A DNA stretch of 63,568 nt, counting the filler, from Folioceros fuciformis (Eukaryota), in assembly GCA_049999805.1 (NCBI GenBank). It is 6 parts of 5 records of this genome, joined end to end, with 100 filler letters (N's around TTAATTAATTAA, not from the genome) between each part and the next. Parts side by side here need not be neighbours in the genome. Positions count along the whole stretch, not along the records: positions 53,294 to 59,436 come from JBNGIO010006215.1; positions 59,537 to 62,424 come from JBNGIO010006219.1; 4 more parts are not named here. One strand, given 5' to 3'. The translations under genes were made by a program, and so were the position numbers. Positions 12,154-63,568 of the stretch are shown here, piece by piece. A model generated the notes under the pieces. The model searched no databases, was not told where the DNA came from, and worked only from the letters and a program-made list of their open reading frames with translations. How positions within the stretch are numbered: position 1 is the first letter of the stretch; each line of letters begins with the position of its first letter.

Positions 12154-12349
12154 ATGGCCGGCATGGCGAAGCTCGTCCTCGTCCGCAACGTTCNNNNNNN
12201 NNNGGATCAGTGAAGTCGACGGTGGCACGCGGGTGTCCATACACAACCAGCGGGACTGCGAAGGCTACAGTAGCGTTGCACAGATTTACGGCCCAGGGTG
12301 CGTGGTGCAAGGGGCGACCAAGCTGCGGGCTGTCTGGATTCAGGGTTGA
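12154..12349 (+). CDS. Small secreted Cys protein, paralogue of 14929-15285 (middle lost in a 10-N gap)
   Basis: MAGMAKLVLV...[gap]...ISEVDGGTRVSIHNQRDCEGYSSVAQIYGPGCVVQGATKLRAVWIQG*; near-identical C-terminus to the downstream copy. Missed by the ORF track because of the gap. Confidence 0.85.
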
Positions 12350-24925: not shown

Positions 24926-25703
24926 GACTTTCCAACAAAATTTGAGTAATATTAAATCTTGCATAGGAAAAGGTGACGCACGGTGGAACGAAGAGCCTTC
25001 TTTCAAATTATTGCGATGGGATTTACATTATCATGTTGTTTAAGCTTGGCAACTGAAGGCACCATTGGAATCAATTGGGGTTGAATTAATTAAAAGATAC
25101 GGGTTCAATGAAGTGAAATTTTTGTCTAGCTTCCACGCCTTCCCATCCCGTGATATTTTTCTTCACCTAATTTGATAAAGTTGTTGTTGTGTTATATGCT
25201 ACCCNNNNNNNNNNNNNNNNNNNNNNNNNNNNNNNNNNNNNNNNNNNNNNNNNNNNNNNNNNNNNNNNNNNNNNNNNNNNNNNNNNNNNNNNNNNNNNNN
25301 NNNNTGTTATATGCTACCCAAGGCAAGTCAGCGCTCGGGAAAGCAAACACTTCGAATTTTGAAGAGGACGCAGGATTCGCACCAGAAGGAAGGATTCGCC
25401 GCAAAGCGCAGCGATGGTGGGATTCGGAGCCGTGGCCAGGGACACGGGCACTGAACTCACGTGCACCTCCGGATGTCTGCTTTTCGGAATATGCCCATTG
25501 GCAAGAATGAGCGAGGCGAGGCCATGGGTTCTTGGAACTTCAGCCGGCCGTGGACCAGCATCTCACCAAACCTTGCACGAGCCTGGTTTATATAGTGACA
25601 GTGGATCCTTTCCATTCCACTGCACTGCTCTCGTCTCGTCTTCCTTCCAGCGCTGGTGCCAGCCTTGCAGCTTCCTAAGCTGTCGACAAGGAGCCCATTC
25701 GAC

Positions 25704-27563: not shown

Positions 27564-27663
27564 NNNNNNNNNNNNNNNNNNNNNNNNNNNNNNNNNNNNN
27601 NNNNNNNTTAATTAATTAANNNNNNNNNNNNNNNNNNNNNNNNNNNNNNNNNNNNNNNNNNNN
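27564..27663. other. Artificial contig linker N44-TTAATTAATTAA-N44 (also at 47935-48034, 53194-53293, 59437-59536, 62425-62524)
   Basis: Identical 12-mer with stop codons in all six frames centred in five 100-base N blocks. Confidence 0.95.
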
Positions 27664-35200: not shown

Positions 35201-38200
35201 TTCAATGATGGAGTCCTTCGAAAATCGTGTGAATCAGGTGAGAAATTGATATATTTTCGAACAATGTCTCATGTCTGAACACGGTTGTGTTGTTCGTGAG
35301 CACTAATCGAACACGCTGTTTTGCAGGTGCTCAATAAGGCTCGTGATGAAGCTGGTAATAGTGCTCAGCGTAGCTTGTCCGAGAGCAATAACGTCAAAGC
35401 TATGGTGACAGCAGGTTCAAAGGGTTCCTTCATTAACATATCTCAAATGATTGCCTGTGTGGGGCAACAAAATGTTGAAGGAAAGCGGATACCATACGGA
35501 TTTGTGGACAGGACCCTTCCACACTTCACAAAGGACGACTATGGTCCAGAGAGTCGCGGCTTTGTTGAGAATTCGTACTTGAGAGGGCTGACACCCCAGG
35601 AATTCTTTTTCCATGCCATGGGAGGAAGGGAGGGTCTTATTGACACTGCAGTGAAAACATCGGAGACAGGATACATCCAAAGGCGTCTAGTGAAGGCCAT
35701 GGAGGATGTTATGGTGAAGTATGATGGAACAGTGAGGAATTCACTGGGTGATGTCATACAATTTCTGTATGGGGAAGATGGTATGGATTCAGTGTGGATT
35801 GAATCTCAGAAGCTTGACTCTATGAAGATGAAGATGAAAGAGTTTGACAGAGTCTACAAGTTTGAGATGGACAGTGATTCGTGGAACCCTGACTACATGT
35901 CATCAGAGGCTGCAGAAGATATCAAGACAATACCAGAGTTTCGTAATGTCTTTGAAGCTGAAGTTCAAAAACTGTTGACAGACCGAAGGCAGCTTGGATT
36001 GGAGATTGCTCCTTCTGGGGATTCTATGTGGCCACTTCCTGTGAATCTCAAGCGTTTGCTTTGGAATGCCCAAAAGATTTTTAAGGTGGATTTCAAAAAG
36101 CCATCAGATATGCATCCAATGGAAATTGTAGAAGCTGTTGACAAGCTCCAAGAACGGTTGAAGGTGGTTTCAGGGGATGATCCAATCAGCACAGAGGCTC
36201 AGAAGAATTCCACCCTGTTTTTCAATTGCTTGCTAAGGAGCACGCTGGCTAGCAAGCGAGTGTTAAAAGAGTGGAGGTTGACTAAAGAAGCGTTTGAGTG
36301 GGTTATTGGAGAGATCGAAGCACGTTTTCTGCAGTCGCTGGTTGCTCCTGGAGAGATGATTGGTTGTGTTGCTGCTCAGTCGATTGGTGAGCCAGCGACA
36401 CAAATGACTCTGAATACTTTTCACTATGCTGGTGTCAGTGCGAAGAATGTTACCCTGGGAGTGCCAAGGTTGAGGGAGATTATAAATGTTGCCAAGAAGA
36501 CCAAGACTCCATCTTTATCTGTCTATTTGAGGCCTGAGGTGAACAAGGAGAAAGAGAAAGCTAAGAATGTGCAGTGTGCTCTCGAGTACACAACTTTGCG
36601 TAGTGTAACACAGGCCACGGAGATCTGGTATGATCCAGACCCAATGAGCACCATAATTGATGAAGACATAGAGTTTGTCCGGTCATACTATGAAATGCCA
36701 GATGAGGATGTGGCACCTGAGAAGATATCGCCATGGCTCCTGAGAGTTCAATTAAACAGGGAGATGATGGTTGACAAGAAACTGAGTATGGCTGATATTG
36801 CAGAGAAGATCAATATAGAGTTTGACGATGATTTGGCCTGCATCTTCAACGATGACAATGCAGAAAAGCTGATTCTACGAATCAGAATAATGAATGATGA
36901 AGCACCCAAGGGTGAAACACCAGAGCGAAGTGAGGATGATGTCTTCCTCAAGAAGATCGAAAGCAACATGCTCACAGAAATGGCTCTCCGTGGCATCCCT
37001 GATATTAGAAAAGTTTTTATAAGGGAGACAAAAAAGAACAAGTTTGATGAAATTCAGGGATTTAAACCAGAAACGGAATGGATGCTGGATACAGAGGGGG
37101 TGAACATGTTGGCGGTTATGTGTCATGAGGATGTTGACTCCACCAGGACCACAAGCAATCATCTCATTGAGGTGATTGAAGTACTTGGCATTGAGGCAGT
37201 ACGGCAAGCTCTGTTGAAAGAGCTTAGAGACGTTATATCTTTTGATGGATCTTACGTCAACTACCGGCACTTGGCTATATTGTGTGACATAATGACTTAC
37301 CGTGGCCATCTTATGGCAATCACAAGGCATGGTATCAACCGCAACGATACAGGTCCGATGATGCGATGTTCTTTTGAGGAGACAGTGGACATTCTGCTGG
37401 ATGCTGCAGTTTATGCTGAGTCTGACCAGCTCAGGGGCGTGACAGAAAATATTATGCTTGGGCAGTTAGCACCCATTGGGACAGGTGATTTTGGTCTACT
37501 GCTCAAGGAGAACATGTTGCAGCATGCCATAGAGTTGCAACTGCCAAGCTACCTGGAGGGTCTAGAGTTTGGCATGACTCCTGCACGGTCGCCAATGATC
37601 GGCACACCTCACCATGATATCACGATGTCCCCAAGTTATCTCCTGAGTCCCGGCATTCGGTCCTCACCCCACTCTGATGCTCAGTTTTCACCTTACGTTT
37701 CTGGCATGCAGTTCTCCCCTCAGAGCCCTGGATACAGTCCAGCTTCCCCTGGCTACAGTCCGACCTCCCCTGGATATAGTCCTACTTCTCCTGGTTACAG
37801 TCCCACTTCACCGGGCTACAGTCCCACATCTCCTGGTTATAGCCCTACCTCCCCTTCGTATAGTCCCACTTCTCCTTCGTACAGTCCCACTTCTCCTACG
37901 TACAGCCCCACTTCCCCATCTTACAGTCCTACATCCCCGCGGTACAGTCCAACCTCTCCAGCCTATTCTCCAACAAGCCCATCTTACTCCCCAACCTCCC
38001 CGAGTTACAGTCCCACATCACCGAGTTATAGTCCAAGTTCTCCTGCGTACAGTCCGACCTCTCCAAGTTACAGCCCAACCTCTCCAGCTTACAGTCCTAC
38101 ATCACCGACTTACAGTCCAACCTCTCCAGCTTACAGTTACAGTCCAACTTCTCCTGGCTACAGTCCAACTTCACCAAGCTACAGTCCAACATCACCTGGC

Positions 38201-38869
38201 TACAGTCCTGCTTCCCCCGTCTACTCTCCAAGCAGTCCCAGATATTCGCCTTCAAGCCCAGCGTATAGTCCCACGTCACCAAGTTACAGGTAATGTATCG
38301 CCAAGCAGCATTGTTAAGTGGTTGTTTATCACATGTGGAATCGTCACGGTAATCCAGTAAGCTCCGTGGGTCACGTGCTGAATATTATGTTACTGTGTGC
38401 AGTCCGACGTCTCCATCATATTCTCCAACATCTCCCTCTTACTCACCCACCAGCCCTTCTTACAGCCCGGCTGCTCCATCTCTGACCCCTACCAGGTATG
38501 CGCACCTTCGGATTTACTTTCACTTTTGCTTTGTGCTTCTGCTCTCCGTTTAAGGCATGTCCTGTGTGATCGTTGTAAGCGGGAAACCTTTCTTTTGTGC
38601 AGTCCCTCGTACTCGCCATCCACACTTGGTTACAGCCCGACAGCGCAACATCCGTACAGGTATTACTCAGGGTTCACACAGTTTTCAGCTTGAATGTGCG
38701 GTTCTTTGTGTGCTCTGTCAAGATAACGTGAATTTCTAACTTCTGTCTCGTTGGAAATTACAGCCCTACTACGGGAGGATACTCACCGTCAACCCCAAAT
38801 TCTGGATATTCACCATCCTCTAATCAGTTCACACCGACGTATGGAAAAGATGACAAGGCCAATCCCTGA
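32241..38869 (+). CDS. NRPB1: DNA-directed RNA polymerase II largest subunit (multi-exon)
   Basis: Starts [28 protein letters not shown] zinc site, NADFDGD active site, ~35 YSPTSPS-type heptads. Last exons 38403-38495, 38603-38659, 38764-38869. Confidence 0.98.
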
Positions 38870-47934: not shown

Positions 47935-48989
47935 NNNNNNNNNNNNNNNNNNNNNNNNNNNNNNNNNNNNNNNNNNNNTTAATTAATTAANNNNNNNNNN
48001 NNNNNNNNNNNNNNNNNNNNNNNNNNNNNNNNNNGGAACTGGACAGCAGCGAAGGAGAATGGGAGGGGGGAAAGGTCTGGACAAGAGCGTTGTAGCGCTA
48101 GCAGGCAGGAGATGGAGGAAGAAATTGGCAGCGGGGAGATGGGGAAGCGGGACAGCGGGAGCAAGGTAGGAAGACAGATCAGCGAGCATGATCCTGCAGC
48201 CATTCCAACGGTGCGGGGATGAGGATGGGCTGGAGCTGGAAACCGGGGATGGTGAGCAGGTCGCAGCTCCTAATCCTCCTATAGCGGCCTTCACTCCCAG
48301 CACTCGAGGATCCCTCCCCCTACTTGCAATATGGATCCAAAAGAAGAATCGGGACAAAGGGATGGAGAGGGAAGGGGAAGAAGAGGAAGCGGGACAAGAA
48401 GGGAATGGAAGAGGAAGGGGGAAAGGGAGAAAGGGGGAGAGGGATGGGGGCGGCCGCAACCCCTGCCCTAGCTAGGGCACGGCCTCCATAGCCGTTCAAG
48501 CCAGCCAGCCTGACGTTACACTCTGACATACCATACCCCACATATTCCCGTTCCTAGGTTCCTCTTATTATTCTATATTTATATTATTTAATATAATTCA
48601 ATATTATTTAATCATTTAATATTTTATATCTTTAATTAATATTAAACTAATCACAGATCTAGACTCAACCTTTCCCGACCCTATGGTTCAGTACCGGACC
48701 TAAACCTTCCCAGGTCTGGGACCAAACCTATACCCACTCTTATAACCAAACCAACTACTTCCTAGTCAATTAACCTAATTAGCACAAAGAAAAATAGGAA
48801 AAATGACCAGAAAATAAAAGAAAATTAGGGAAAATAAGTAGAAAAAGAAAACCAGACCATACCACTATTAACCCTTTTTCAATTAAAACAAACTACTACC
48901 CCAAACTTTGGAGGTTCATAGGCTGATCAGGAGATAGCAGTGGTGGAGATCAAAGAGTGAACAGTTGTTTAGCTAACCCGTGGCCGTGG

Positions 48990-53193: not shown

Positions 53194-54188
53194 NNNNNNN
53201 NNNNNNNNNNNNNNNNNNNNNNNNNNNNNNNNNNNNNTTAATTAATTAANNNNNNNNNNNNNNNNNNNNNNNNNNNNNNNNNNNNNNNNNNNNCTTAGCG
53301 AGTAATGTCGTTTCGCATGGTTTAATTTCCAGGTTATATTATATGCCTAAATAGTGATGTATCGTAACACCCCCTCTTAAACCAGAAACGAAACGGCCAG
53401 GAGATAGGGCACGCGCCGCCACACTATGTGGATGAGGGGATGTGAAGTGCGCGACAACGGGTGGTGGAGCATGGACGCTATCTCGAAAGAGTTGCCACGC
53501 ATGGCACGAAAGAATGAGTGGAGTAGGAGGCCAGCGGGCTGTGAGCACGGAGGTGTGGCGGACTCACAGATCTGGGCGAGCACGCGGGGAAGATACCCAC
53601 GCCGCGAAGCTGCAAGTTCCATTTCGCGCGTTTCCCCGAATGCTGCGTTTGTGCAGAGCAGTAGGAAGTTGTGCATGTGACCGATTCACTGATCCAGACT
53701 GTGTATCCGCGGGGCGCGCACTAGGGAGGCCTGTGCGCTGCGGGAGCTGCAGGTAGCATACCGCACGCGCCTGCCCCAGAGTCCAGAAATTTCAGTTCTT
53801 TTCTTTTGTTTGTGCTGGATGGTGAGCGGATCAGGCCCGTGACTTGGCTCCTGATCTTGGGTCGCTTGTGTGCAGGCCATACGCACCATAGGTTGCTGCT
53901 GGGTCTTAGCAACATGTAGACCAGATGCTTAGATCTCCTTGATGCTTCATCCGTCTGGCTGGTGATTGTTGGCTGCAGGCGGGCATAATAACTCGCCCTT
54001 TAATGACCAATGATGTCCAGTCGCATACGTTCACCTAGGTTTGACTAATCAGCATAGCTGTGCTCCCTCGTATGACAGGTGATTGTGGGAGCAGGGCTGT
54101 GGGGTCTGCAGGGGAAATATTAGGCATCAGCTAGGGCAGCCGTCTTCAGGTAACATGCTAATTTCCCCCTCTCAGTCCCACGGCCCTT

Positions 54189-57100
54189 TCATCTATCAAA
54201 GTAAGCGGAGTAGTCGCTAAGGCCAAGCCCCCTTATATGTAAATAGTGGGAAAGCTTGGGCAGTCCTTTTGTGAAAATATCTGCTGTGTTTGCTTCAGTA
54301 CTCACATGATCAACTTTGATGATGCCTCTGGACACCAGGTCTCGTATGTAGTGGTGGTGTACTTCGATATGCTTTGTACGAGCATGGAAAGTTGGTCTGG
54401 AAACAAGATCCAAAGCTGAGGTGTTGTCGCGCAAGATCACCGTAGGATCTGGCTGTGGGTGATTAAGACCTGTTAGAAAACTTCTCTCCCATTCTGCTTC
54501 CTTAGCTGCTTCGGTTAGTGATTTGTATTCAGCTTCAGTAGAGCTGAGAGCAATGGTTGACTGTTTTTTGCTGCTCCAGGTAACAGCTGCTGAAGCAAGG
54601 AGAAAACAGTATGAGGAGATGCTTCGTCTTGAATCGGAATCTGACGCCCAGTCAGCGTCTGAATAGCCAGATAAGGTAAGCCTCTTCTCTCCACTCCTTC
54701 TGTACGTGAGGCCATAATTTAACGTGCCTTGAAGATAACGGAAGATCCGTTTCACTGCTGTCCAGTGTGCTCTTCCAGGGCACTCAAGGAATTGTGATAC
54801 TGTACTAACGGAGTATTGTATGTCAGGTCTTGTCCAATTGGCGACGAACAGCAGGCTGCCCACTGCGTGCCTATAAGGTACACCTTCCATGTCTCTAAGT
54901 TCATCTGGGGTCTGTGGGCTTTGCTGACGAGTTAGCTTAGTACCCACTGCATATGGGGTTGTCACAGGTCTTGCCTGGTCTAGGTGGAACTTGCGTAGGA
55001 TTTCAGTGATGTATTTTCTCTGGTGTATATACATTATACCAGCATCACGCACACGTAGAAGTTGAATTCCTAGGCAGTACCTCAACTCTCCAATGTCTTT
55101 CATGTCAAATCGCTGATGGAGCTGCTACTTCACATCTGCTAATAGTGACTGATCGTTTGTGGCAAGGATTAAATCATCAACATAAAGGGCAAGCAACACA
55201 GTGGAAGATCCTCTCTTGAGCATGTACACATTGCTGTCAGCGGTGTTTTGAACGAAACCAATACTGATCAGTTCGACATGCATTGTGAGGTACCATACTC
55301 TGCCACTTTGTTTTAATCCATAAATGCATTTCAACAGCCTAAGCACTTGGTGTGGGTGTGCAGGGTCTTCATAGCCTTCAGGCTGAAACATGTACAACTC
55401 CTCTTCGAGGACTCCGTATAAGAAGGCAGTACAGACGTCCATCTGTTCAAGGTCGAGATCAAATTCTGTGGCATAAGCAAGAATCAAGCGAATTGATTGG
55501 CTGCGAACTACAGGTGAGAATGTTTCCTGGTAGTCCAGCCCTTCCACTTGAGTGAAGCCTCTTGCTACCAGTCGTGCTTTGAACCTAGCAACTTCACCTT
55601 TAGCATTAAGTTTTAACTTAAATGTCCATTTGCAGGATATGGCTTTCCTGCCTGGAGGGAGATCAGTGAGCGTCCAAGTTTTGTTCTTCACCAAGGACTG
55701 GTATTCTTCTTCAACTGCTTGCTTCCATTGCTCGCGTTGTGGACCATTAAATGCCTGAGTTAACGTGGTGGGTTCCTCAGGTATAGGAGAAGGTGGTCCA
55801 AGAGAGGCATGGGTCCGAAAATCAGTGGACACATAGGGAGGTTCCTTCCATTCAAATGGAGGAGGTCTGTGACGTGTGGAGCGACGGGGAGGATCAGCAG
55901 CTGGTTCAACCTGAGGTGGAGGCTGTGGAGGGTCAGCCATGGAAGGTGCTGCATCAGCGGGCCCTACTTCCCCCTCTGCATCCAATACAGGTTGATCAGG
56001 GGCTGCATCCAAGGTTTGCATTTCTCCTTCAACATTTGCATCTGCATTTGTCTCAAGGTTGTGAGTAGGAGCTAATGGCTGATGTCCTGTAGGCGCAGGA
56101 GGGGGAGCCATGGGTTCAGGCTCATCCTCATCAAGGGGAAAGTCAGCAAGTCGGTCAGCTGGGGCAGATGTAATGGGATCATCTGGTGGGCTGTCATCAA
56201 GAACAGGGCTGTGGAGCTCGACAAAGTGACACTCCTAGCAAGGACAATAGTGTCAGTGTCTTTGTTATACAGTTTGTAAGCTTTTGAATGTTCACTGTAG
56301 CCAACCAGGATAAGTGCCTCAGCACGGCTGTCTAGCTTATGTCTTTTCTCCTTAGGTATATAGGCGTACGCGCGGGATCCAAAGACTCGGAGGTGAAGGA
56401 GGCTGGGCTTCTTGTTCCAGAATACCTCAAATGGGGTTTTATTTGGAACGGTGCTGGTGAGGACGCGATTGAGAATGTATGTCGCTGTCACTATGGCCTC
56501 CGCCCAATAGCCTTGAGGTAAACCTGCCCACAGCAACATGCTCCTCGTCATAGACAATAAGGTTTGATTTTTCCTTTCTGATACTCCGTTTTGTTGAGGT
56601 GTGTAGGGCACTGTTGTCTGGTGCAATATCCCGTGAGATTGCAGCAGGTCTTGAAAGTTGGAGTTTACAAATTCAGTGCCATTGTCTGTCCTGAGAGTCT
56701 TCAGAAGTTGCCCAGATTGTCTTTGAGCAGTGGTAAGCCAGTCCTTGAAGAATCCAGAGGTGTCACTCTTGAATTCCATTGGAAATGTCCATGTGTAGCG
56801 GCTATAGTCATCAGTTATAGTGAAAAAATAGCGGGCACCTCCTAGTGAGGGCTCATGGACCTTGCCTGAGATGTCAGCATAGACTAACTCAAGGACTCTT
56901 GTGGCTCTCTGTGCAGGTGAAGTGGGGACTGGCAATTCCTTTTGCTTCGCGAGTATGCAGGGTTCACATACAGGTAATTGTTTGAAGCATTTAGGTAGGG
57001 GCTCACGATGGCATCCTAGGGTTGACATGTCTATTAGCTTAGACTGGTTGACGTGGCCCAAACGGGCATGCCAAAGCAAGGCCTGCTGTTCTTGGCTTAA

Positions 57101-58474
57101 GTTAGAGGATGAGGTTGAGTGAGTAGCCTCATTTAGCTCAGGTCCTGTACAGGTAATGTTCAGCCTGTACAGGTTGCTTGCGGGCAAGCCCTCAAAGGCA
57201 CATGTATGAGGGGATGACTGCCTGTAGAAACAGCAGTGTTCATGGTCTGCATGCATGTAGAACATGCGTTGACGCATGATTTGACTCATAGACATGAGAT
57301 TTTTGGCCATGCTTGGGACATAGATGACATCATCTAGGGTTAACTCTATGCCATCATGCAGTGTGAAGACACACGTGCCTCTACCCTGGATAGGTAAGCT
57401 TGACCTACTTTGTTCATCTGCAAGGAATACCTGACCTCCTGTTTGTGTCAGGTCTAGGATTTTGAAAAGTTCCTTTTTCTTGCAGATGTGGGCGGTGGCC
57501 CCCGAATCAAGATACCAGCAGGTGTCATCACTCCGAGTGCTGAACAGGCATACCGTAAGTATCTTCACAGGGGCCTTGGGGTCTGCTTTATTCTGCCTCA
57601 CTGCTACATTTGCTGTAGCCTTTGGCTGGCGCTGGGGCTCACCTGCCTTGCGTTTGCGGCATTCTCTTGCCCAGTGGCCAGGGAGGCCGCACCAGTTACA
57701 GCTGCCAGGGCGTTTGGCAGCATTAGAGGGTTCTCCCCTCTGTCTTTGTGCTGTGGGAGCTCGGAACCTTGCCTTGCCTTTGCGAAAGTTAGTAGCTAAT
57801 GCTTTCTCCCCTCTGTCCTTGGCAGCTGAGGAGAAAGTACGGCTCTGCTCCTCCTGGAACAGTGCACCGATCACCTCCTCCAGGGTGATGGTCACTGTCT
57901 GGCCAGAGGCAGCAGCTGCGGCACGTATGGGGCCATTTTGGCTTGTCACAAATGTCTGGTAGGAGGCAGGGAGACTGGTCAGGAGCTGGGCGATGGCGTC
58001 CACTTCTGACATCTTCTCTCCTGTCATGGCTGTAAGTTGAGCACGTAGGTGCCTAAACTTGCAGACGTGGGAGGCTACTTTGTCTCCCTCCTTCATTTTC
58101 AGAGAGTAGAACTCTTGCCTTACTGCACATAAGGTCATCATATTCTGGATTTTATAAGTCTTCTCTAACTGGTCCCATATGGCATGTGCAGATGTCAAGT
58201 ACTCCACATCAGGGACAAGGTCCGAGTCTAGTCCACCAATAATCAGCGCAACGGCAATGGCGTTGAACTGCTCCCATTTAGCAATCTCCTCTAGGGTTGG
58301 TGCAGGGCTACTGGACGGGTCTGGTTTAAGGTAAGTACCATCTACGGTGGTCCAGACTCCCCTGGCCAGCAAGGTGGCCTTCATTCTGACCCTCCAGACA
58401 TTATAGCCCTGCCCCTTAAACCTATCTTTTTCTTTGAGTTCAGAGGTGAACGTAGGTAAGCTACTGGATGCCAT
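54189..58474 (-). pseudogene. Copia D gag-pol with one frameshift (~56230) and one premature TAG (55125)
   Basis: CNWCGLPGHWAREC, YLDSGAT, WHARLGH, TDNGTEF, YVDDL, SDADWA, ADIFTK. Confidence 0.92.
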
Positions 58475-58596
58475 CGCTGCTTGTTGATTAGGATGCAGTG
58501 ATAGGTTTTGAAAACCACTAATGAGTGAGTTTAATTGTGCAGCAGTGAACACGAAGCTATGTAGCTATGTCACTACTGTCTCGCTACTACCTGTCC

Positions 58597-58725
58597 TTCT
58601 TTCTTACGTTGTGTTATCTCCAGCGAGACCTTGTTGGGCGCAGAGTTCAGGGGCCATCAAGAGTGATGGCTGCTGGATCCTGAGCCCAATTAAAGGTCTC
58701 GCCAGGGGTCACCGCAACATAAAGG
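58597..58725 (-). promoter_or_regulatory. Conserved rod-like RNA hairpin in Copia D leader
   Basis: 85/93 nt identical to 60653-60745; nested stems; function unknown. Confidence 0.75.
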
Positions 58726-58927
58726 TGTGTCGTTATGTGGCTACGAACCCTAAAGCTAATGTATAGTTAGGGTTTTTCTAACAGACGTGTCCCAAGCACA
58801 TGGAATGGTTTTCCAGGTGTACCAATGGAGGAGCACCAGTTGAGGCCTTCGTAATGAACTCAAGGTGCATCACGGCGGTTCAGATCTGGTGCTCTCAGTT
58901 GCTGCTACTCCCCTGCAGCGGAAGGGT

Positions 58928-59311
58928 CTAATGAAGGCTGTCTGATCTTGATGAAGTGGGTAAGCCCTCCAAGATTTGGCCCAAAAATTCTGAAATTTGT
59001 TGGGTACTTGTCTTGGCTTCATCAATTGGGGTGTGATTAACTTGAATGTCTGTGTCACAGCCTTCGGAGATGATCCTAGATGGAGCTTGGAAAGACAATA
59101 GGCTAGACAGCAATCTCTCCACGCGGCTGAGAATATTCTGTGATCTGTCAAGGATTTTTCTCAGCCCTTTTAGAGAATTGATGTCGGGTTTGTCTTTATG
59201 CCTTGCAGGTGCTCTGCGCGTCTTGGAATTCTGTTCTGCGCAGCAAACATGGCACATGGAGGCATGGGAATCATAGGCGCGATGCGCATCGGAGGGGCCT
59301 CCACATCGCAT
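58928..59311 (-). CDS. Candidate ORF0 upstream of gag in Copia D (127 aa)
   Basis: ATG-initiated, sense to gag; DINSLKGLRKILDR resembles DIPEIDGAYRVLSDR of Copia E ORF0. Confidence 0.45.
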   Translation of the reverse strand: MRCGGPSDAHRAYDSHASMCHVCCAEQNSKTRRAPARHKDKPDINSLKGLRKILDRSQNILSRVERLLSSLLSFQAPSRIISEGCDTDIQVNHTPIDEAKTSTQQISEFLGQILEGLPTSSRSDSLH

Positions 59312-59893
59312 AGGTGAAAAACACCGTAGACTGGGGAGGGTTTGCCACCGGGCGCTTGCCCTTCTAGGGGAGCGCGCAGCCTCAAAAGGGATGTGCGCCG
59401 TGTGTACAGGTGGTTGACTTCCGGCAGAGTATTCCCNNNNNNNNNNNNNNNNNNNNNNNNNNNNNNNNNNNNNNNNNNNNTTAATTAATTAANNNNNNNN
59501 NNNNNNNNNNNNNNNNNNNNNNNNNNNNNNNNNNNNTTTTGTATATAAACACTTTTGTTGATATTAATTGAACAATCTTTATGCACAACTTGGTGAGTAG
59601 TGTGAGATTCTCTAATGTTTAACATGGTATCAGAGCAATCTACGTTTGGATATTTATGTCTGCAAAAATTTCTATATAGTAACATGTATGCGGGGTCGAA
59701 GAGAAGATGCGGACACAAAATCCATTAGTCACATCATGTGGTTTCTGGATCTTGTGTCTACATTTTCTCTCCCACCCTGCGATACAACGTCAGTACTATG
59801 TTACAATTTACAGTTTGCATGACAATATCAGAAACTAGAAATTCCGCTGTGCACATCTGCTTGCGAAAGAGCAGCAGATGATGAAAGTTGAAG

Positions 59894-60418
59894 ATGCCTC
59901 GACGGAGACGATCTCGGGTCGAGCCTCCAACTTTTGTACCCTGCAGCCATTCCAATTTCAGTGAACGTGTGGGATTAGTAAGGCCTGTTCGGGATTATAG
60001 AACAAGACAGGACAGAATCCCACACATCCTCTCTCGATCAAATTGCCGTACGCATGTTTTAGGCCAACCCAAAGTCAAGCCAAAGAATGCGTTCGACCTC
60101 GGATCAACAGACATACCTGAAATTGATGGGGCTTACAGAGTGCTCAGTGACAGGTTGACAACTACACAATCAGTGTTGCTGACGGCTCTCTCTCGCCAGA
60201 GTGAGATGCAAATTGCTCGGCATCAAGAAAATCTGGCAGCAATCGACCTTTTCTTGCGAATACAAACCACTCTGTTGAAGGAAGTGCGAGATTTAACAGA
60301 ATTGATGCAGGAGTTTACCTCTAATTCTGGAGCGCCTTCTACAGTCACAGATTTGCTGCAGATGCTTTCTCCCAATCGCGAGAAGTTCAGATCGAAGGAG
60401 TCGCCGGCGGCGCTGTAG
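59894..60418 (+). CDS. ORF0 upstream of gag in Copia E (174 aa, basic N-terminus plus coiled-coil)
   Basis: Intact ORF MPRRRRSRVE...; clear homologue at 62724. Confidence 0.72.
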   Translation: MPRRRRSRVEPPTFVPCSHSNFSERVGLVRPVRDYRTRQDRIPHILSRSNCRTHVLGQPKVKPKNAFDLGSTDIPEIDGAYRVLSDRLTTTQSVLLTALSRQSEMQIARHQENLAAIDLFLRIQTTLLKEVRDLTELMQEFTSNSGAPSTVTDLLQMLSPNREKFRSKESPAAL

Positions 60419-60640
60419 CAGTCGGCCAAGTCTCACTGCACCGCCAGATCCGAAATGTCGTCTGCTGGAATTTTGGCGCGGCCAAGTCCTGGCTGGGATC
60501 TGTGACCCATCATAGCTGCTGAGATTCCAAGAGGCGTTGCCGTTGCGCTTGCCGGCTGTGCTCTGTCGTATGGACGCCCCAACTTTGAAGCGTCGCGACT
60601 TTCGGACCTGCAACATTAGATGCCTGTAGAGCACTCAACC

Positions 60641-60765
60641 TACGTTGTAATTACCCCTGGCGAGACCTTCAATTGGGCTCAGGATCCAGCAGCCATCACG
60701 TTGGATGACCCCTGAATTATGTGCCCAACAAGGTCTCGCTGGAGACAATACACCGTAAGAAAGAA
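60641..60765 (+). promoter_or_regulatory. Conserved rod-like RNA hairpin in Copia E leader
   Basis: CUGGCGAGACCUU/AAGGUCUCGCUGG, UUGGGC/GCCCAA and UCAGG/CCUGA stems; shared with Copia D. Confidence 0.75.
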
Positions 60766-60794
60766 CAACCACGATTTCAAGCACATAACTTTCA

Positions 60795-60886
60795 GCAACC
60801 TAATCCTCCTTGTCCAAGCACTTACTGAAGAAGGTCTTGCGCGGCTTGATCACCCGCCTTGATCCCTTCTTCCCTAAGTAGGTTGC
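60795..60886 (+). promoter_or_regulatory. Stem-loop with palindromic UGAUCA loop just upstream of gag AUG (DIS-like)
   Basis: GCAACCUA/UAGGUUGC, GAAGAAGG/CCUUCUUC and GCGG/CCGC stems; loop CU-UGAUCA-C. Confidence 0.65.
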
Positions 60887-60887
60887 C

Positions 60888-62424
60888 ATGGCAACTGGAA
60901 GCACAGGGGGAAGCGCTGCTGGAAGTAGCAGCGGAGCGGGATCTGTTCCCATTCTTCCTGCAGTCCTTGTCATACCTCAGCCTTCTTATTCTGTTGAATT
61001 CAAGGAGAGGGACAGGTTTAATGGCTTGAAATTCGAAGGCTGGAAGGTGCGCATGACAGCTGCCCTGCAAGCGCGACACGTTTGGGGAGTTGTTACTGGC
61101 ACGCTCAAAGAACCAGCATCATCTGCTACACAAGACGAAAAGGACAAGTGGGCGAACCTGAATTACGCCGCACGCGCCGTCTTAATCAGCAGGCTGGACG
61201 AATCCCTCCTCGCCGATGTTGCTTTTCTCACCAAGGCTGAAGAGATCTGGACTCTTCTTACACAGACATATGAGGCTAAGAACATTCTTACCATGTGTGC
61301 TGTTCGGGGCGAACTGTTTTCCTTACGTCTTAAGGAAGGCGACAAGGTTTCTCCTTTTGTCATTCGCTTCAGACAACTGCGAGCTCAATTAATCAACCTT
61401 GGTTCACAGTTCCCTGAGCTTGATGCCGTTAGCCAGCTGCTGACAAGTCTGCCTCCAAGCTATCAAACATTCGTTTCCAGCTATGGAGCCACTGTCCGAG
61501 CTGCTGATGCTGCACGAGCTGCAGGACAACCCACAAATATAAATCTCGCAGACGTGATAGGAGCTTTGCTTCAAGAGGAACAAAGCAGGCTCACGTCTAC
61601 TTACCATGGTGGCAAGACAAAAACTGATAAGGTTCTGTTCACCAAAGGCAAACCTGCCAAACAAAGACCTTTCCCTGGAGCAGTTTCTAAACCTGGCTCC
61701 ACAAAACGGACTGGAACTTGCAACTGGTGCGGTATCCAGGGCCACTGGGAAAGAGAATGTCGGAAAAAGAAAGCTGGTGAGGCACGCAAAGCTGAGAAGC
61801 CTACCCGACAGGCTGAAGCACATGTTGCTGCCACCAAGGACCGTCCTTCCACTTCGACACCTCACAAGCAACCTGTAGTAATGACGGTTTGCTTCGCTTC
61901 GTCTGCTTTTCGTCCTTCCTCACACACATGGTACCTGGACTCGGGGGCCACGTCTCACATCTGTAATGCCAAGTCCATGTTCTGTCATTATAGATCGTCC
62001 ACTACCACTAACAAGGTTTTGTTGGGTGATGAAGTGACTCGTACAGGTCTGAGCATCCAAGGACATGGTACCTGCGTGTTTCGCTTGAATGATGGCTCTC
62101 TCCTGCACCTAGAAAACGTGCTGCATGTCCCTCACATGGCTAAGAATCTGATATCAGTCAGCCAGTTAATGTCTCTACGGCTCTACGACCTTTTGTTCAC
62201 TTCGTCTAGCTGTCAGCTTACAAAGCGAGGGGGAGATAGAAAGGTCATAGCCACTGGTATTTTAGTGCATGACTTGTATCAACTCAACTTGACATGTTTA
62301 CCTGAGGGCATGGCACATGTTGCACAACTTTCTCAAGCTGCAGAGGCTAGTTTATGGCATGCTAGACTAGGTCATGCTAATCGGGCCAAACTGATAAAAA
62401 TGTCCAACCTCACATGTTACCGAG
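60888..62424 (+). CDS. Copia E Gag-Pol polyprotein (partial, open to gap)
   Basis: KERDRFNG..W, CNWCGIQGHWEREC, YLDSGAT, LWHARLGH; no stops over >500 codons. Confidence 0.93.
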
Positions 62425-62723
62425 NNNNNNNNNNNNNNNNNNNNNNNNNNNNNNNNNNNNNNNNNNNNTTAATTAATTAANNNNNNNNNNNNNNNNNNNN
62501 NNNNNNNNNNNNNNNNNNNNNNNNTTCTATCCTGGTGTATTAGATGTCTGTAGAAAGGAGTACGTTCTCTTAATACAAAGTCTCTTCTACTCTTACACAT
62601 CTGCATCAGCGATGGGTTTTTAACCGAGATATTGCACGATAGAAAATGCAAACGCAAAATTTCCGCCGCGCGGATCTGGCTGCTTTACGGCAGCAGGTTC
62701 GACTGTTTTAAATCCGGTTGAAG

Positions 62724-63135
62724 ATGACTCGACGGGGACGATCTCGCGTCGAGCGATCCACATCTCCCACCTGCCATCAATACAGAGAGAGGAATCAAAT
62801 TTTCAGGATTCGAGAGGGGTCGGATCTGGAGGAGACTTTTCAATCCAGTGTCCCTGATCTACCTGAAATTGTTGGAGCATATAGGGTGCTCAACAATCGG
62901 CTTACCACAACGGAAACAGTACTTCTTGCTACTCTTTCTCGGCAGAGCGAGATTCACACTGCCCGGCATCAGGAATTTCTGGAAGCCATTGATCATCTCC
63001 TGCGCAGGCAAACCTTCGCTATTAAAGGGCGTTCAGCAACTTACAGATCTGGTCACAGATTTGCAGCGGCGAGTTGCCTTCAAATTCGAAGTCCTAGCCT
63101 CTGAATGCTCTGGCTTCGCCGCGCGAGATGCCTAG
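62724..63135 (+). pseudogene. ORF0 of Copia F (frameshift near 63015)
   Basis: MTRRGRSRVE...DLPEIVGAYRVLNNRLTTTETVLLATLSRQSEIHTARHQE; continues LLKGVQQLTDLV in the next frame, like E's LLKEVRDLTELM. Confidence 0.72.
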
Positions 63136-63365
63136 ATCGCAACCGTCGCCAGATGCCTGCTGAAGGGGCGCGTCGGCTGCTTGCGTGGCATCGTCGATTC
63201 CTCCCGCCGCAGCGTCGGTGTGGGTGCCCTATGCGCCTCCTCCCGGTTGCCTGCGCCCTTTCACTCCAGCCGCGAAGCGCTGGGTCTCGGCCCCAATCGA
63301 CAACCATCTATGTCGGTTGACACCTCTTGATTGCCTCGCTCCTTCGCCTTGCAATCCTTGCAATC

Positions 63366-63441
63366 CTGACCCATTTTTTTGAAGATGACCCTGTACCAGC
63401 CTGATCACCTGGATTAGCGTCTTCTTCACAAAGCAGGTCAG
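63366..63441 (+). promoter_or_regulatory. DIS-like stem-loop upstream of gag AUG in Copia F
   Basis: CUGACC/GGUCAG, GAAGAUG/CGUCUUC and CCAG/CUGG stems; loop CC-UGAUCA-C. Confidence 0.65.
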
Positions 63442-63568
63442 CATGGCCACAGGAACAGGCGGAGGAGGAGGAACATGAGGAAGTGCAGTAGGTGGTGGCG
63501 GAGGGGGAGGAGGTGTAGTCGCCCTCCCGCTCCCTGCCGTACCTGTGATTCCTCAGCCATCCTACTCT

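Follow-up and report, generated by a model that had tools for sequence, protein, structure and literature searches.

An imperfect palindrome shared by the gag-proximal leaders of two divergent Copia elements in Folioceros fuciformis

Why should a stretch of 121 nt in the leaders of two retrotransposons be more alike than any part of their genes? The question is raised by a 63,568-nt stretch of DNA from Folioceros fuciformis (NCBI GenBank assembly GCA_049999805.1; hereafter the window), in which two Ty1/Copia elements, here called D and E, carry similar copies of an imperfect palindrome, or rod hairpin, upstream of gag. A first-pass annotation of the window had drawn attention to this hairpin and read it as an exchangeable cis-RNA module. 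Structured leader signals of retroelements are a known kind of thing. What is unusual, as far as sequence comparison goes, is that this block outdoes every coding part in conservation between lineages whose Gag-Pol proteins are 45% identical (224/497), at a fixed distance from gag, and that it is missing from closer relatives. Almost nothing is known of the cis-acting RNA signals of plant Copia elements, be it for packaging, for dimerization, or for the translation of gag behind long leaders. The block offers a small concrete handle on such signals and on the exchange of regulatory RNA modules between retrotransposon families. The reading that we favor, tentatively and at a probability of about 0.3, is that the rod may serve as a gag-proximal translation gate; a role in RNA dimerization or packaging ranks close behind it. 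All of the argument rests on the two copies in the window and on indirect evidence from sequencing contigs.

The shared block and its fold

Pfam finds copia Gag, zinc knuckle, protease barrel, integrase, and RVT_2 domains in D and E, as expected of Ty1/Copia elements. Their two palindromes (Table 1) align without gaps and are identical at 103 of 121 positions, leaving 18 differences; the same alignment bears out the core identity first reported, 85 of 93 nt with 8 differences. When the window is searched with the E contig by blastn, the D copy is returned over 113 nt at 90.3% identity (E value, 5e-39). Similarity ends within a few bases of the rod base, apart from a common 3' tail (GAAAGA-A) that prolongs the shared block to position 58597 in D and 60765 in E, and the flanks of D and E cannot be aligned. 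Taken with the Gag-Pol identity given above, this upholds the earlier claim that the Gag proteins and the surrounding leaders are more diverged than the block. The best match between D and E in coding DNA spans 78 nt at 77% identity (blastn) and encodes the CCHC zinc knuckle of Gag. Within the block, the best-conserved runs make up the lower-stem duplex, to which the 5' arm contributes runs of 17 and 29 nt and the 3' arm one of 23 nt.

Folded as sense RNA, the block is predicted to reach -60.0 kcal/mol in D (z score, -7.05) and -48.9 kcal/mol in E (z score, -6.07), with 0 of 200 shuffled sequences equally stable; the common rod fold proposed for the two copies is thus recovered in both. The rod remains a separate domain within leader folds of 469 to 482 nt, and none of 6194 sliding 125-nt windows, taken from both strands of the whole window, folds at a lower energy than the D block. 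The complementarity of UCCAGC to GCUGGA, which had also been pointed out, can be read directly in the sequence.

We assessed the differences between the copies against these folds. RNAalifold predicts 38 common pairs, of which 36 are invariant, one carries a one-sided change (U-G to C-G), and one a compensatory change (G-C to A-U). The D fold pairs 73% of the columns, yet only 8 of the 18 differences fall in them (binomial P = 0.0105); in the core alone, 3 of 8 do (P = 0.05). The first-pass annotation had placed six of the eight core differences in loops or bulges; the bias stands, but the minimum-energy fold of D leaves five of the eight unpaired. When E is threaded onto the D fold, or D onto the E fold, the result is more stable than random mutants with the same number of substitutions (P = 0.028 and 0.004, respectively). 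These structure statistics, which rest on two copies and in which the loosely paired outer portion accounts for a cluster of 10 of the 18 differences, lend modest support (P about 0.01) to selection on structure.

These predictions partly support a view of the block as a discrete, structured cis element in the leader of the Copia genomic and messenger RNA. As regards the cis-RNA module first proposed, its discreteness is favored by the sharp edges, the same orientation and distance to gag, the substitution bias, and the one compensatory pair, whereas a role in binding the product of ORF0, an open reading frame (ORF) upstream of gag, is weakened, as set out in the next section.

A possible route of ribosomes to gag

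The leader of E is measured from its primer-binding site and comes to 1251 nt, with 21 upstream AUGs (19.1 expected). According to passages in PMC3852365, the motif at this site, TGGTATCAGAGC, is complementary to tRNA-Met in plant copia elements; the window holds no tRNA gene for comparison. Judged from the motif, the host is probably a plant in the wide sense; Rpb1 yielded no usable taxon in Protein Atlas. The D leader is at least 962 nt long and contains 12 upstream AUGs, the primer-binding site lying beyond the contig end. The gap between the block and the gag AUG, estimated before as about 120 nt, measures 122 nt in each element. The two spacers cannot be aligned (37/122 ungapped identity), and both are free of AUGs, for which the joint Poisson chance is about 0.04. 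A 17-codon small ORF also recurs in both copies: its AUG lies in the upper 3' arm and its UAA within a conserved GUAAG at the rod's 3' base, and D and E agree in its start, length, and stop.

Based on these observations, we suggest that the rod acts as a gate for the translation of gag. Scanning would not be expected to reach gag, because the leader carries 21 upstream AUGs and the 174-codon ORF0 in E, and 12 AUGs in D. Hairpins near -50 kcal/mol reportedly block scanning in work by Kozak, and a sense-strand rod of -49 to -60 kcal/mol should therefore do the same; a scanning 40S subunit could not pass so stable a rod. The rod carries the 17-codon ORF with its stop at the 3' base, and behind it would lie an AUG-free run-up of equal length in both elements, 122 nt from the block and 129 nt from the small-ORF stop. 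Ribosomes could then arrive at the gag AUG in a discontinuous manner, through a landing downstream of the rod (shunt or internal entry) or through reinitiation once the small ORF has been read; we propose discontinuous arrival because a long AUG-rich leader cannot deliver ribosomes by plain scanning. Both the sense RNA as the active form and the behavior of ribosomes at the rod are what we infer. The constant AUG-free spacer, the common 17-codon ORF, and the substitutions that avoid paired columns suggest such a gate. Moreover, the sharp edges, the same orientation, and the identical distance to gag across unalignable sequence, together with that spacer and those substitutions, lead us to favor a gag-linked functional module over a random recombination tract or two independent insertions.

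The closest parallels known to us are the leader hairpins of CaMV (cauliflower mosaic virus) and of RTBV (rice tungro bacilliform virus). Passages in PMC5902531 describe the leader hairpin of these viruses and of prototype foamy virus as a short-ORF-dependent shunt structure that also carries a packaging signal. Like CaMV and RTBV, the Copia elements have a long leader rich in upstream AUGs, an extended hairpin of great stability ahead of the first large ORF, and an AUG-free landing stretch; the tRNA-Met primer-binding site motif of E is also mentioned in papers on plant pararetroviruses. In D only, a short ORF (AUG UUG CGG UGA, 3 codons) ends 4 nt before the 13-bp stem, a placement that is shunt-like when set beside the CaMV and RTBV geometry in the same passages. 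GUAAG on the descending arm likewise recalls the splice donor there in CaMV (PMC5902531, in part). Unlike in CaMV and RTBV, the Copia rod is only 121 nt long, lies about 1 kb from the primer-binding site, does not enclose most of the upstream AUGs, and shows no sequence similarity to the viral hairpins; moreover, the AUG of the short ORF is replaced by ACG in E. By analogy with the hairpin of pararetrovirus leaders, the rod may in addition bind Gag or join two RNA molecules, and a packaging role and a translation gate therefore need not be mutually exclusive.

Several observations weigh against the gate. The rod encloses only 2 of the 21 upstream AUGs in E and 2 of the 12 in D, so a shunt over it would leave most leader AUGs unbypassed. 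At the site of the D 3-codon ORF, E reads ACG UUG UAA, with no AUG, and a 31-codon upstream ORF of E enters the rod. The conservation of the 17-codon ORF is not independent of that of the block; and in a test for sense coding, 10 of the 18 differences count as synonymous in at least one open frame, compared with 6.3 expected, which is not significant (P = 0.09). The rod is not needed for an ORF0-gag layout, because element F in the window and a higher-depth relative of E in sequencing contigs both have ORF0 without it. Translation control alone does not explain why loops are conserved at the sequence level. With a sample of two copies, some differences must also be regarded as post-insertion noise, because D and F are defective. 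In the literature that we searched, ribosome shunting has no demonstration for any Copia element.

The strand of action raises a further difficulty for the gate. Antisense folds are better (-69.4 and -63.8 kcal/mol, compared with -59.4 and -49.1 kcal/mol for sense). The rod is a near-continuous run of 42 to 47 pairs on either strand, more regular on the antisense, where both copies have the same architecture and keep 41 of 44 and 45 of 47 pairs; on the sense strand they keep 39 of 44 and 38 of 42. Wobble pairs reveal no strand preference: three invariant wobbles are found in sense and four in antisense, and two and four variable pairs, respectively, survive via wobble. Such an even split would result from transitions within a DNA palindrome, and 13 of the 18 differences are transitions; it would not be expected of a purely sense-RNA element. 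The assumption that sense RNA is the active strand is weakened by these comparisons. As a separate candidate, antisense coding was rejected; in the sole antisense frame open across the block in both copies, 3 differences fall in synonymous and 13 in nonsynonymous codons.

The first-pass annotation placed the hairpin between ORF0 and gag in both elements and considered a Rev/Rev response element (RRE)-like site bound by the ORF0 protein. The placement holds for E. In D, the upstream ORF is not detectably related to the ORF0 of E and F (hhalign probability, 0.1), and we rejected it as a homologue. ORF0 of E and ORF0 of F are 51% identical over 89 amino acids (E value, 2e-23) and share the core D-x-PEI-x-GAYRVL..RLTTT..VLL..LSRQSE. 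Across 53 aligned codons, differences number 12, 7, and 27 at codon positions 1, 2, and 3, with 23 synonymous and 16 nonsynonymous codon changes. ORF0 has no Pfam match and no usable match in Protein Atlas (score, 0.75). This substitution pattern indicates that ORF0 is a real protein-coding gene under protein-level selection, in E and F only. The Rev/RRE-like idea is weakened, because ORF0 occurs in F, where the hairpin is lacking, and because D has an upstream ORF that is unrelated to ORF0.

We also noticed a pyrimidine-rich tract followed by YAG (Y, pyrimidine) 2 to 8 nt before the gag AUG in E (60870-60887), F (63425-63442), and D (58475-58492). In the E spacer, the tract and a TAG stand just before the AUG. 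The tract with its YAG could serve as a splice acceptor, and the GUAAG at the rod's 3' base in D and E as the donor; alternatively, the tract could be a motif of the Yn-Xm-AUG type.

Distribution of the block and alternative readings

A covariance model built from the D and E copies and searched across the 63.6-kb window finds 2 copies, both in Copia leaders. The next match scores 20 bits and falls on another rod of the E leader, unrelated in sequence; this second rod has 45-nt arms that are 76% complementary, and a relative of E in the sequencing contigs spans it with about 81% identity, its small indels being paired. Neither blastn nor the model finds the block in F, which agrees with the earlier statement that this closer relative of E lacks it. 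In place of the rod and its near flanks, F has 215 nt that are unrelated to E, and the 236-nt region of F at this site is not unusually structured (z score, -0.95). No comparable rod was found in the other Copia leaders of the window (upstream of 10423 and 4644, minus strand), whose best folds, -46.1 and -40.2 kcal/mol, are multibranched.

Two DNA runs of one sample of the same organism (X1 and X2) allowed a wider view; their contigs were compared with positions 59537 to 61400 at 80% likeness. The figures that follow are contig depths rather than copy numbers, and the sample may be that of the window assembly. The contigs reproduce the E contig, hairpin included, with 7 differences in 1528 nt. 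Over the rod center, four contigs in X1 and four in X2 give summed depths of 110 and 174, compared with 35 and 52 over the flanks. The raised depth at the rod therefore points to about three further block-bearing sequences that do not match the flanks of E, so that the organism would hold about four hairpin-bearing sequences. All hairpin-bearing contigs are of low depth. Parts of gag reach a summed contig depth of 800 to 1300. A relative of E with higher depth (84 and 114) can be matched over the ORF0 region and again where gag begins; the 663 nt that lie between the two in E are replaced there by 716 dissimilar ones, and the block is absent. At position 60719 the window has A, which creates an extra upstream AUG in the rod, and all contigs from three runs have C, the D state. 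In the third run (X3), the same interval shows 128 C>T and 132 G>A changes and hardly any others; it looks like a bisulfite-type library from the same sample. The word "exchangeable" in the first-pass annotation fits this discordant distribution, with the block in D and E and absent from F and the higher-depth E relative; exchange itself is a reading of that distribution.

Searches elsewhere yielded no further copies. The Rfam check (release 15) gave no match at the gathering score anywhere in the window, and a permissive search of 57500 to 62000 gave, on the block, only mir-345 at 18.4 bits (gathering score, 65; E value, 2.4). In public DNA, a gapped pattern of two stem cores retrieved 32 metagenome and 31 prokaryote-genome stretches, and all 63 were rejected as chance matches, since blastn aligned the pattern bases only. 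Among viral contigs, a 21-mer of the 5' arm had 0 matches and D Gag-Pol had no relative. An 81-codon antisense ORF over the D rod, compared with 1.84 billion protein representatives, had 10 matches (25 to 39 residues), all to very long multirepeat proteins and none a further hairpin copy. In the full-text literature, with subscription journals and supplements outside the scope, we found no conserved gag-proximal hairpin described in Copia leaders.

How well do other explanations account for these results? It is possible that the palindrome is a dimer-linkage and Gag-binding site, in which case heterodimer packaging and template switching would homogenize it or let one lineage capture it from another. 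In E, the rod lies between the primer-binding site and the gag AUG (60888), where retroviral Psi and dimer signals lie. Passages in PMC6844567 describe a Ty1 leader hairpin of two palindromes (PAL1-PAL2, SL1) that opens up to give the intermolecular duplex required for dimerization. Like this hairpin, which belongs to a Ty1/Copia-type element, and like the retroviral dimerization initiation site (DIS) and Psi, the rod is a self-complementary leader sequence between the 5' end and gag. Unlike PAL1-PAL2, it is ten times longer, lies far from the 5' end, and has no exposed palindromic loop common to D and E. The palindrome GGAUCC is unpaired in D and paired in E, so it is not consistently exposed, and we rejected a kissing loop through it. 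Co-folded D-D, E-E, and D-E dimers are 3.6 to 6.4 kcal/mol better than two monomers, but any palindrome gives such energies, which makes them weak evidence. The zinc knuckle match is the only coding stretch that matches at the nucleotide level, and thus the RNA-binding part of Gag is its best-kept part. Homogenization would explain the identity of the loops, the sharp edges at the rod base, and the patchy distribution, but packaging gives no reason for a constant-length AUG-free spacer. Two further points tell against it: E has a second and stronger rod directly behind its primer-binding site, where signals of this kind are more commonly sited, and the higher-depth relatives do without the block.

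Somewhat more doubtful is a neutral origin, in which an old inverted duplication (snap-back), fairly recently passed between lineages or inherited, would be functionless and the similarity of D and E would reflect young age. The wobbles and mismatches are even between the strands, as would be the case if a DNA palindrome decayed through transitions with neither RNA strand under selection, and the high share of transitions fits this. Nor is the hairpin identity (85 to 91%) lower than that between E and its own relative in common leader parts (63 differences in 328 nt and 34 in 164 nt). The low depth of all hairpin-bearing contigs and the defective state of D and F also agree with a relic. A random recombination tract, however, would not be expected to have similarity edges that coincide with both rod bases, and a relic does not account for the orientation and 122-nt gag distance being the same in D and E. 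Paired columns carry fewer differences than expected (P = 0.0105), and the fold of either copy suits the other copy better than it suits random mutants. Even a young relic would still mark a recombination event between distant Copia lineages.

A broader reading, which we consider unlikely, holds that the block is a portable RNA cassette common to distant Copia lineages, kept alike through co-packaging and template switching and also setting the entry of ribosomes to gag at a fixed 122 nt. If it were true, retrotransposon families would be joined in an RNA-level exchange network, and a lineage could gain the particles or the translation route of another via the same 121-nt signal.

Equally improbable, in our estimate, is a small-RNA hairpin, that is, a Dicer-like substrate on either strand that would be a trigger of host silencing, an element-encoded decoy, or a miRNA (microRNA)-like regulator. 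The near-continuous rod of 42 to 47 pairs on both strands would suit such a substrate, and the conserved lower-stem runs (17, 29, and 23 nt) resemble the footprint of a miRNA duplex. There are precedents in two sources: passages in PMC4728375 describe palindromes in the long terminal repeats (LTRs) of maize Sirevirus elements that form hairpins and are hotspots of 21- to 22-nt small interfering RNAs (siRNAs), and passages in PMC5902531 present a structured pararetrovirus leader as an siRNA decoy. Like the palindromes of Sirevirus, also a Copia lineage, the rod is hairpin forming and conserved while its surroundings change (PMC4728375, in part); unlike those clustered short palindromes in the cis-regulatory part of the LTR, it stands alone as one 121-nt rod within the internal region, some 1 kb past the primer-binding site. 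Comparison with Rfam gave no miRNA family above the level of chance (best E value, 2.4; none at the gathering score), a text search for the stem motifs gave no relevant paper, and the fixed distance to gag is left unexplained.

Finally, insertion of a miniature inverted-repeat transposable element (MITE), a small foldback DNA transposon, into both leaders is very improbable: the size of about 120 bp, the whole-length inverted repeat, the stability on both strands (as also in MITE-derived MIRNA hairpins), and the TA dinucleotide at both ends in D and E are MITE-like, but TA belongs to the palindrome with no longer or otherwise convincing target duplication, similarity runs 6 to 8 nt beyond the palindrome on the 3' side in both copies (tail AGAAAGAA), and, in place of the random genomic sites that the first-pass annotation named as the mark of a MITE, we found, as far as we looked, both window copies in Copia leaders in the same orientation at the same position, 122 nt before gag, and only four contigs of low summed depth over the block in each of X1 and X2.

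The elements in the window

The window is a chain of contigs whose joints are artificial linkers with stop codons in all six frames. Neighborhood across a linker is not real, and ORFs that span one, such as 60888 to 62480, enter linker sequence. Element D occupies the minus strand of the piece at 53294 to 59436 and element E the plus strand of the piece at 59537 to 62424. Their head-to-head layout is an artifact, because the linker between them joins two different contigs; the comparison of D with E is unaffected by it. The features discussed above are collected in Table 1.

Table 1. Positions of the shared block, its surroundings, and the joints in the window
Feature	Position	Strand	Remarks
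D copy, 121-nt imperfect palindrome (rod hairpin)	58603-58723	minus	covariance model, 145.7 bits
E copy, 121-nt imperfect palindrome	60639-60759	plus	covariance model, 146.4 bits
17-codon small ORF, D, 3' arm	58604-58657	minus	MAPELCAQQGLAGDNTT, then stop
17-codon small ORF, E	60705-60758	plus	MTPELCAQQGLAGDNTP, then stop
D spacer, block to gag AUG	58475-58596	minus	122 nt; 0 AUG (1.87 expected)
E spacer, block to gag AUG	60766-60887	plus	122 nt; 0 AUG (1.26 expected)
Primer-binding site, E	59625-59636	plus	TGGTATCAGAGC, directly after LTR end ...TAACA
Second rod hairpin of E leader	59677-59801	plus	unrelated to the block; about 40 nt after primer-binding site; -54.7 kcal/mol; 20 bits to model
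ORF0 of E	59894-60418	plus	174 codons; coding, common to F
ORF0 of F	62724-63104	plus	F is without the hairpin
Upstream ORF of D	58928-59311	minus	127 codons; candidate ORF only; D "ORF0" of the first-pass annotation
gag-pol of D, first 800 codons	56072-58474	minus	Gag, zinc knuckle, protease, integrase
Reverse transcriptase/RNase H ORFs of D	55125-56111; 54189-55103	minus	after frame change and in-frame stop
gag-pol of E	60888-62424	plus	truncated by contig end at 62424
Element F	62525-63568	plus	closer relative of E through ORF0
Artificial linkers	27564-27663; 47935-48034; 53194-53293; 59437-59536; 62425-62524		each N44-TTAATTAATTAA-N44
Linker between D contig and E contig	59437-59536		N44-TTAATTAATTAA-N44
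Plain N runs	12194-12203; 25205-25304		

The gag-pol region of D (54189-58474, minus strand) is divided into three ORFs, judging from their coordinates by one frame change and one in-frame stop, so this copy is defective. In F, the gag frame (63443-63568, plus strand) is interrupted by an in-frame stop at codon 12, beyond which the same frame runs on to the conserved motif VIPQPSYS; this copy is therefore defective as well. On another contig piece, a 963-codon frame (35402-38293, plus strand) corresponds to the C-terminal half of host RNA polymerase II Rpb1 (domains 4 to 7), with the heptad repeats of the C-terminal domain (CTD).

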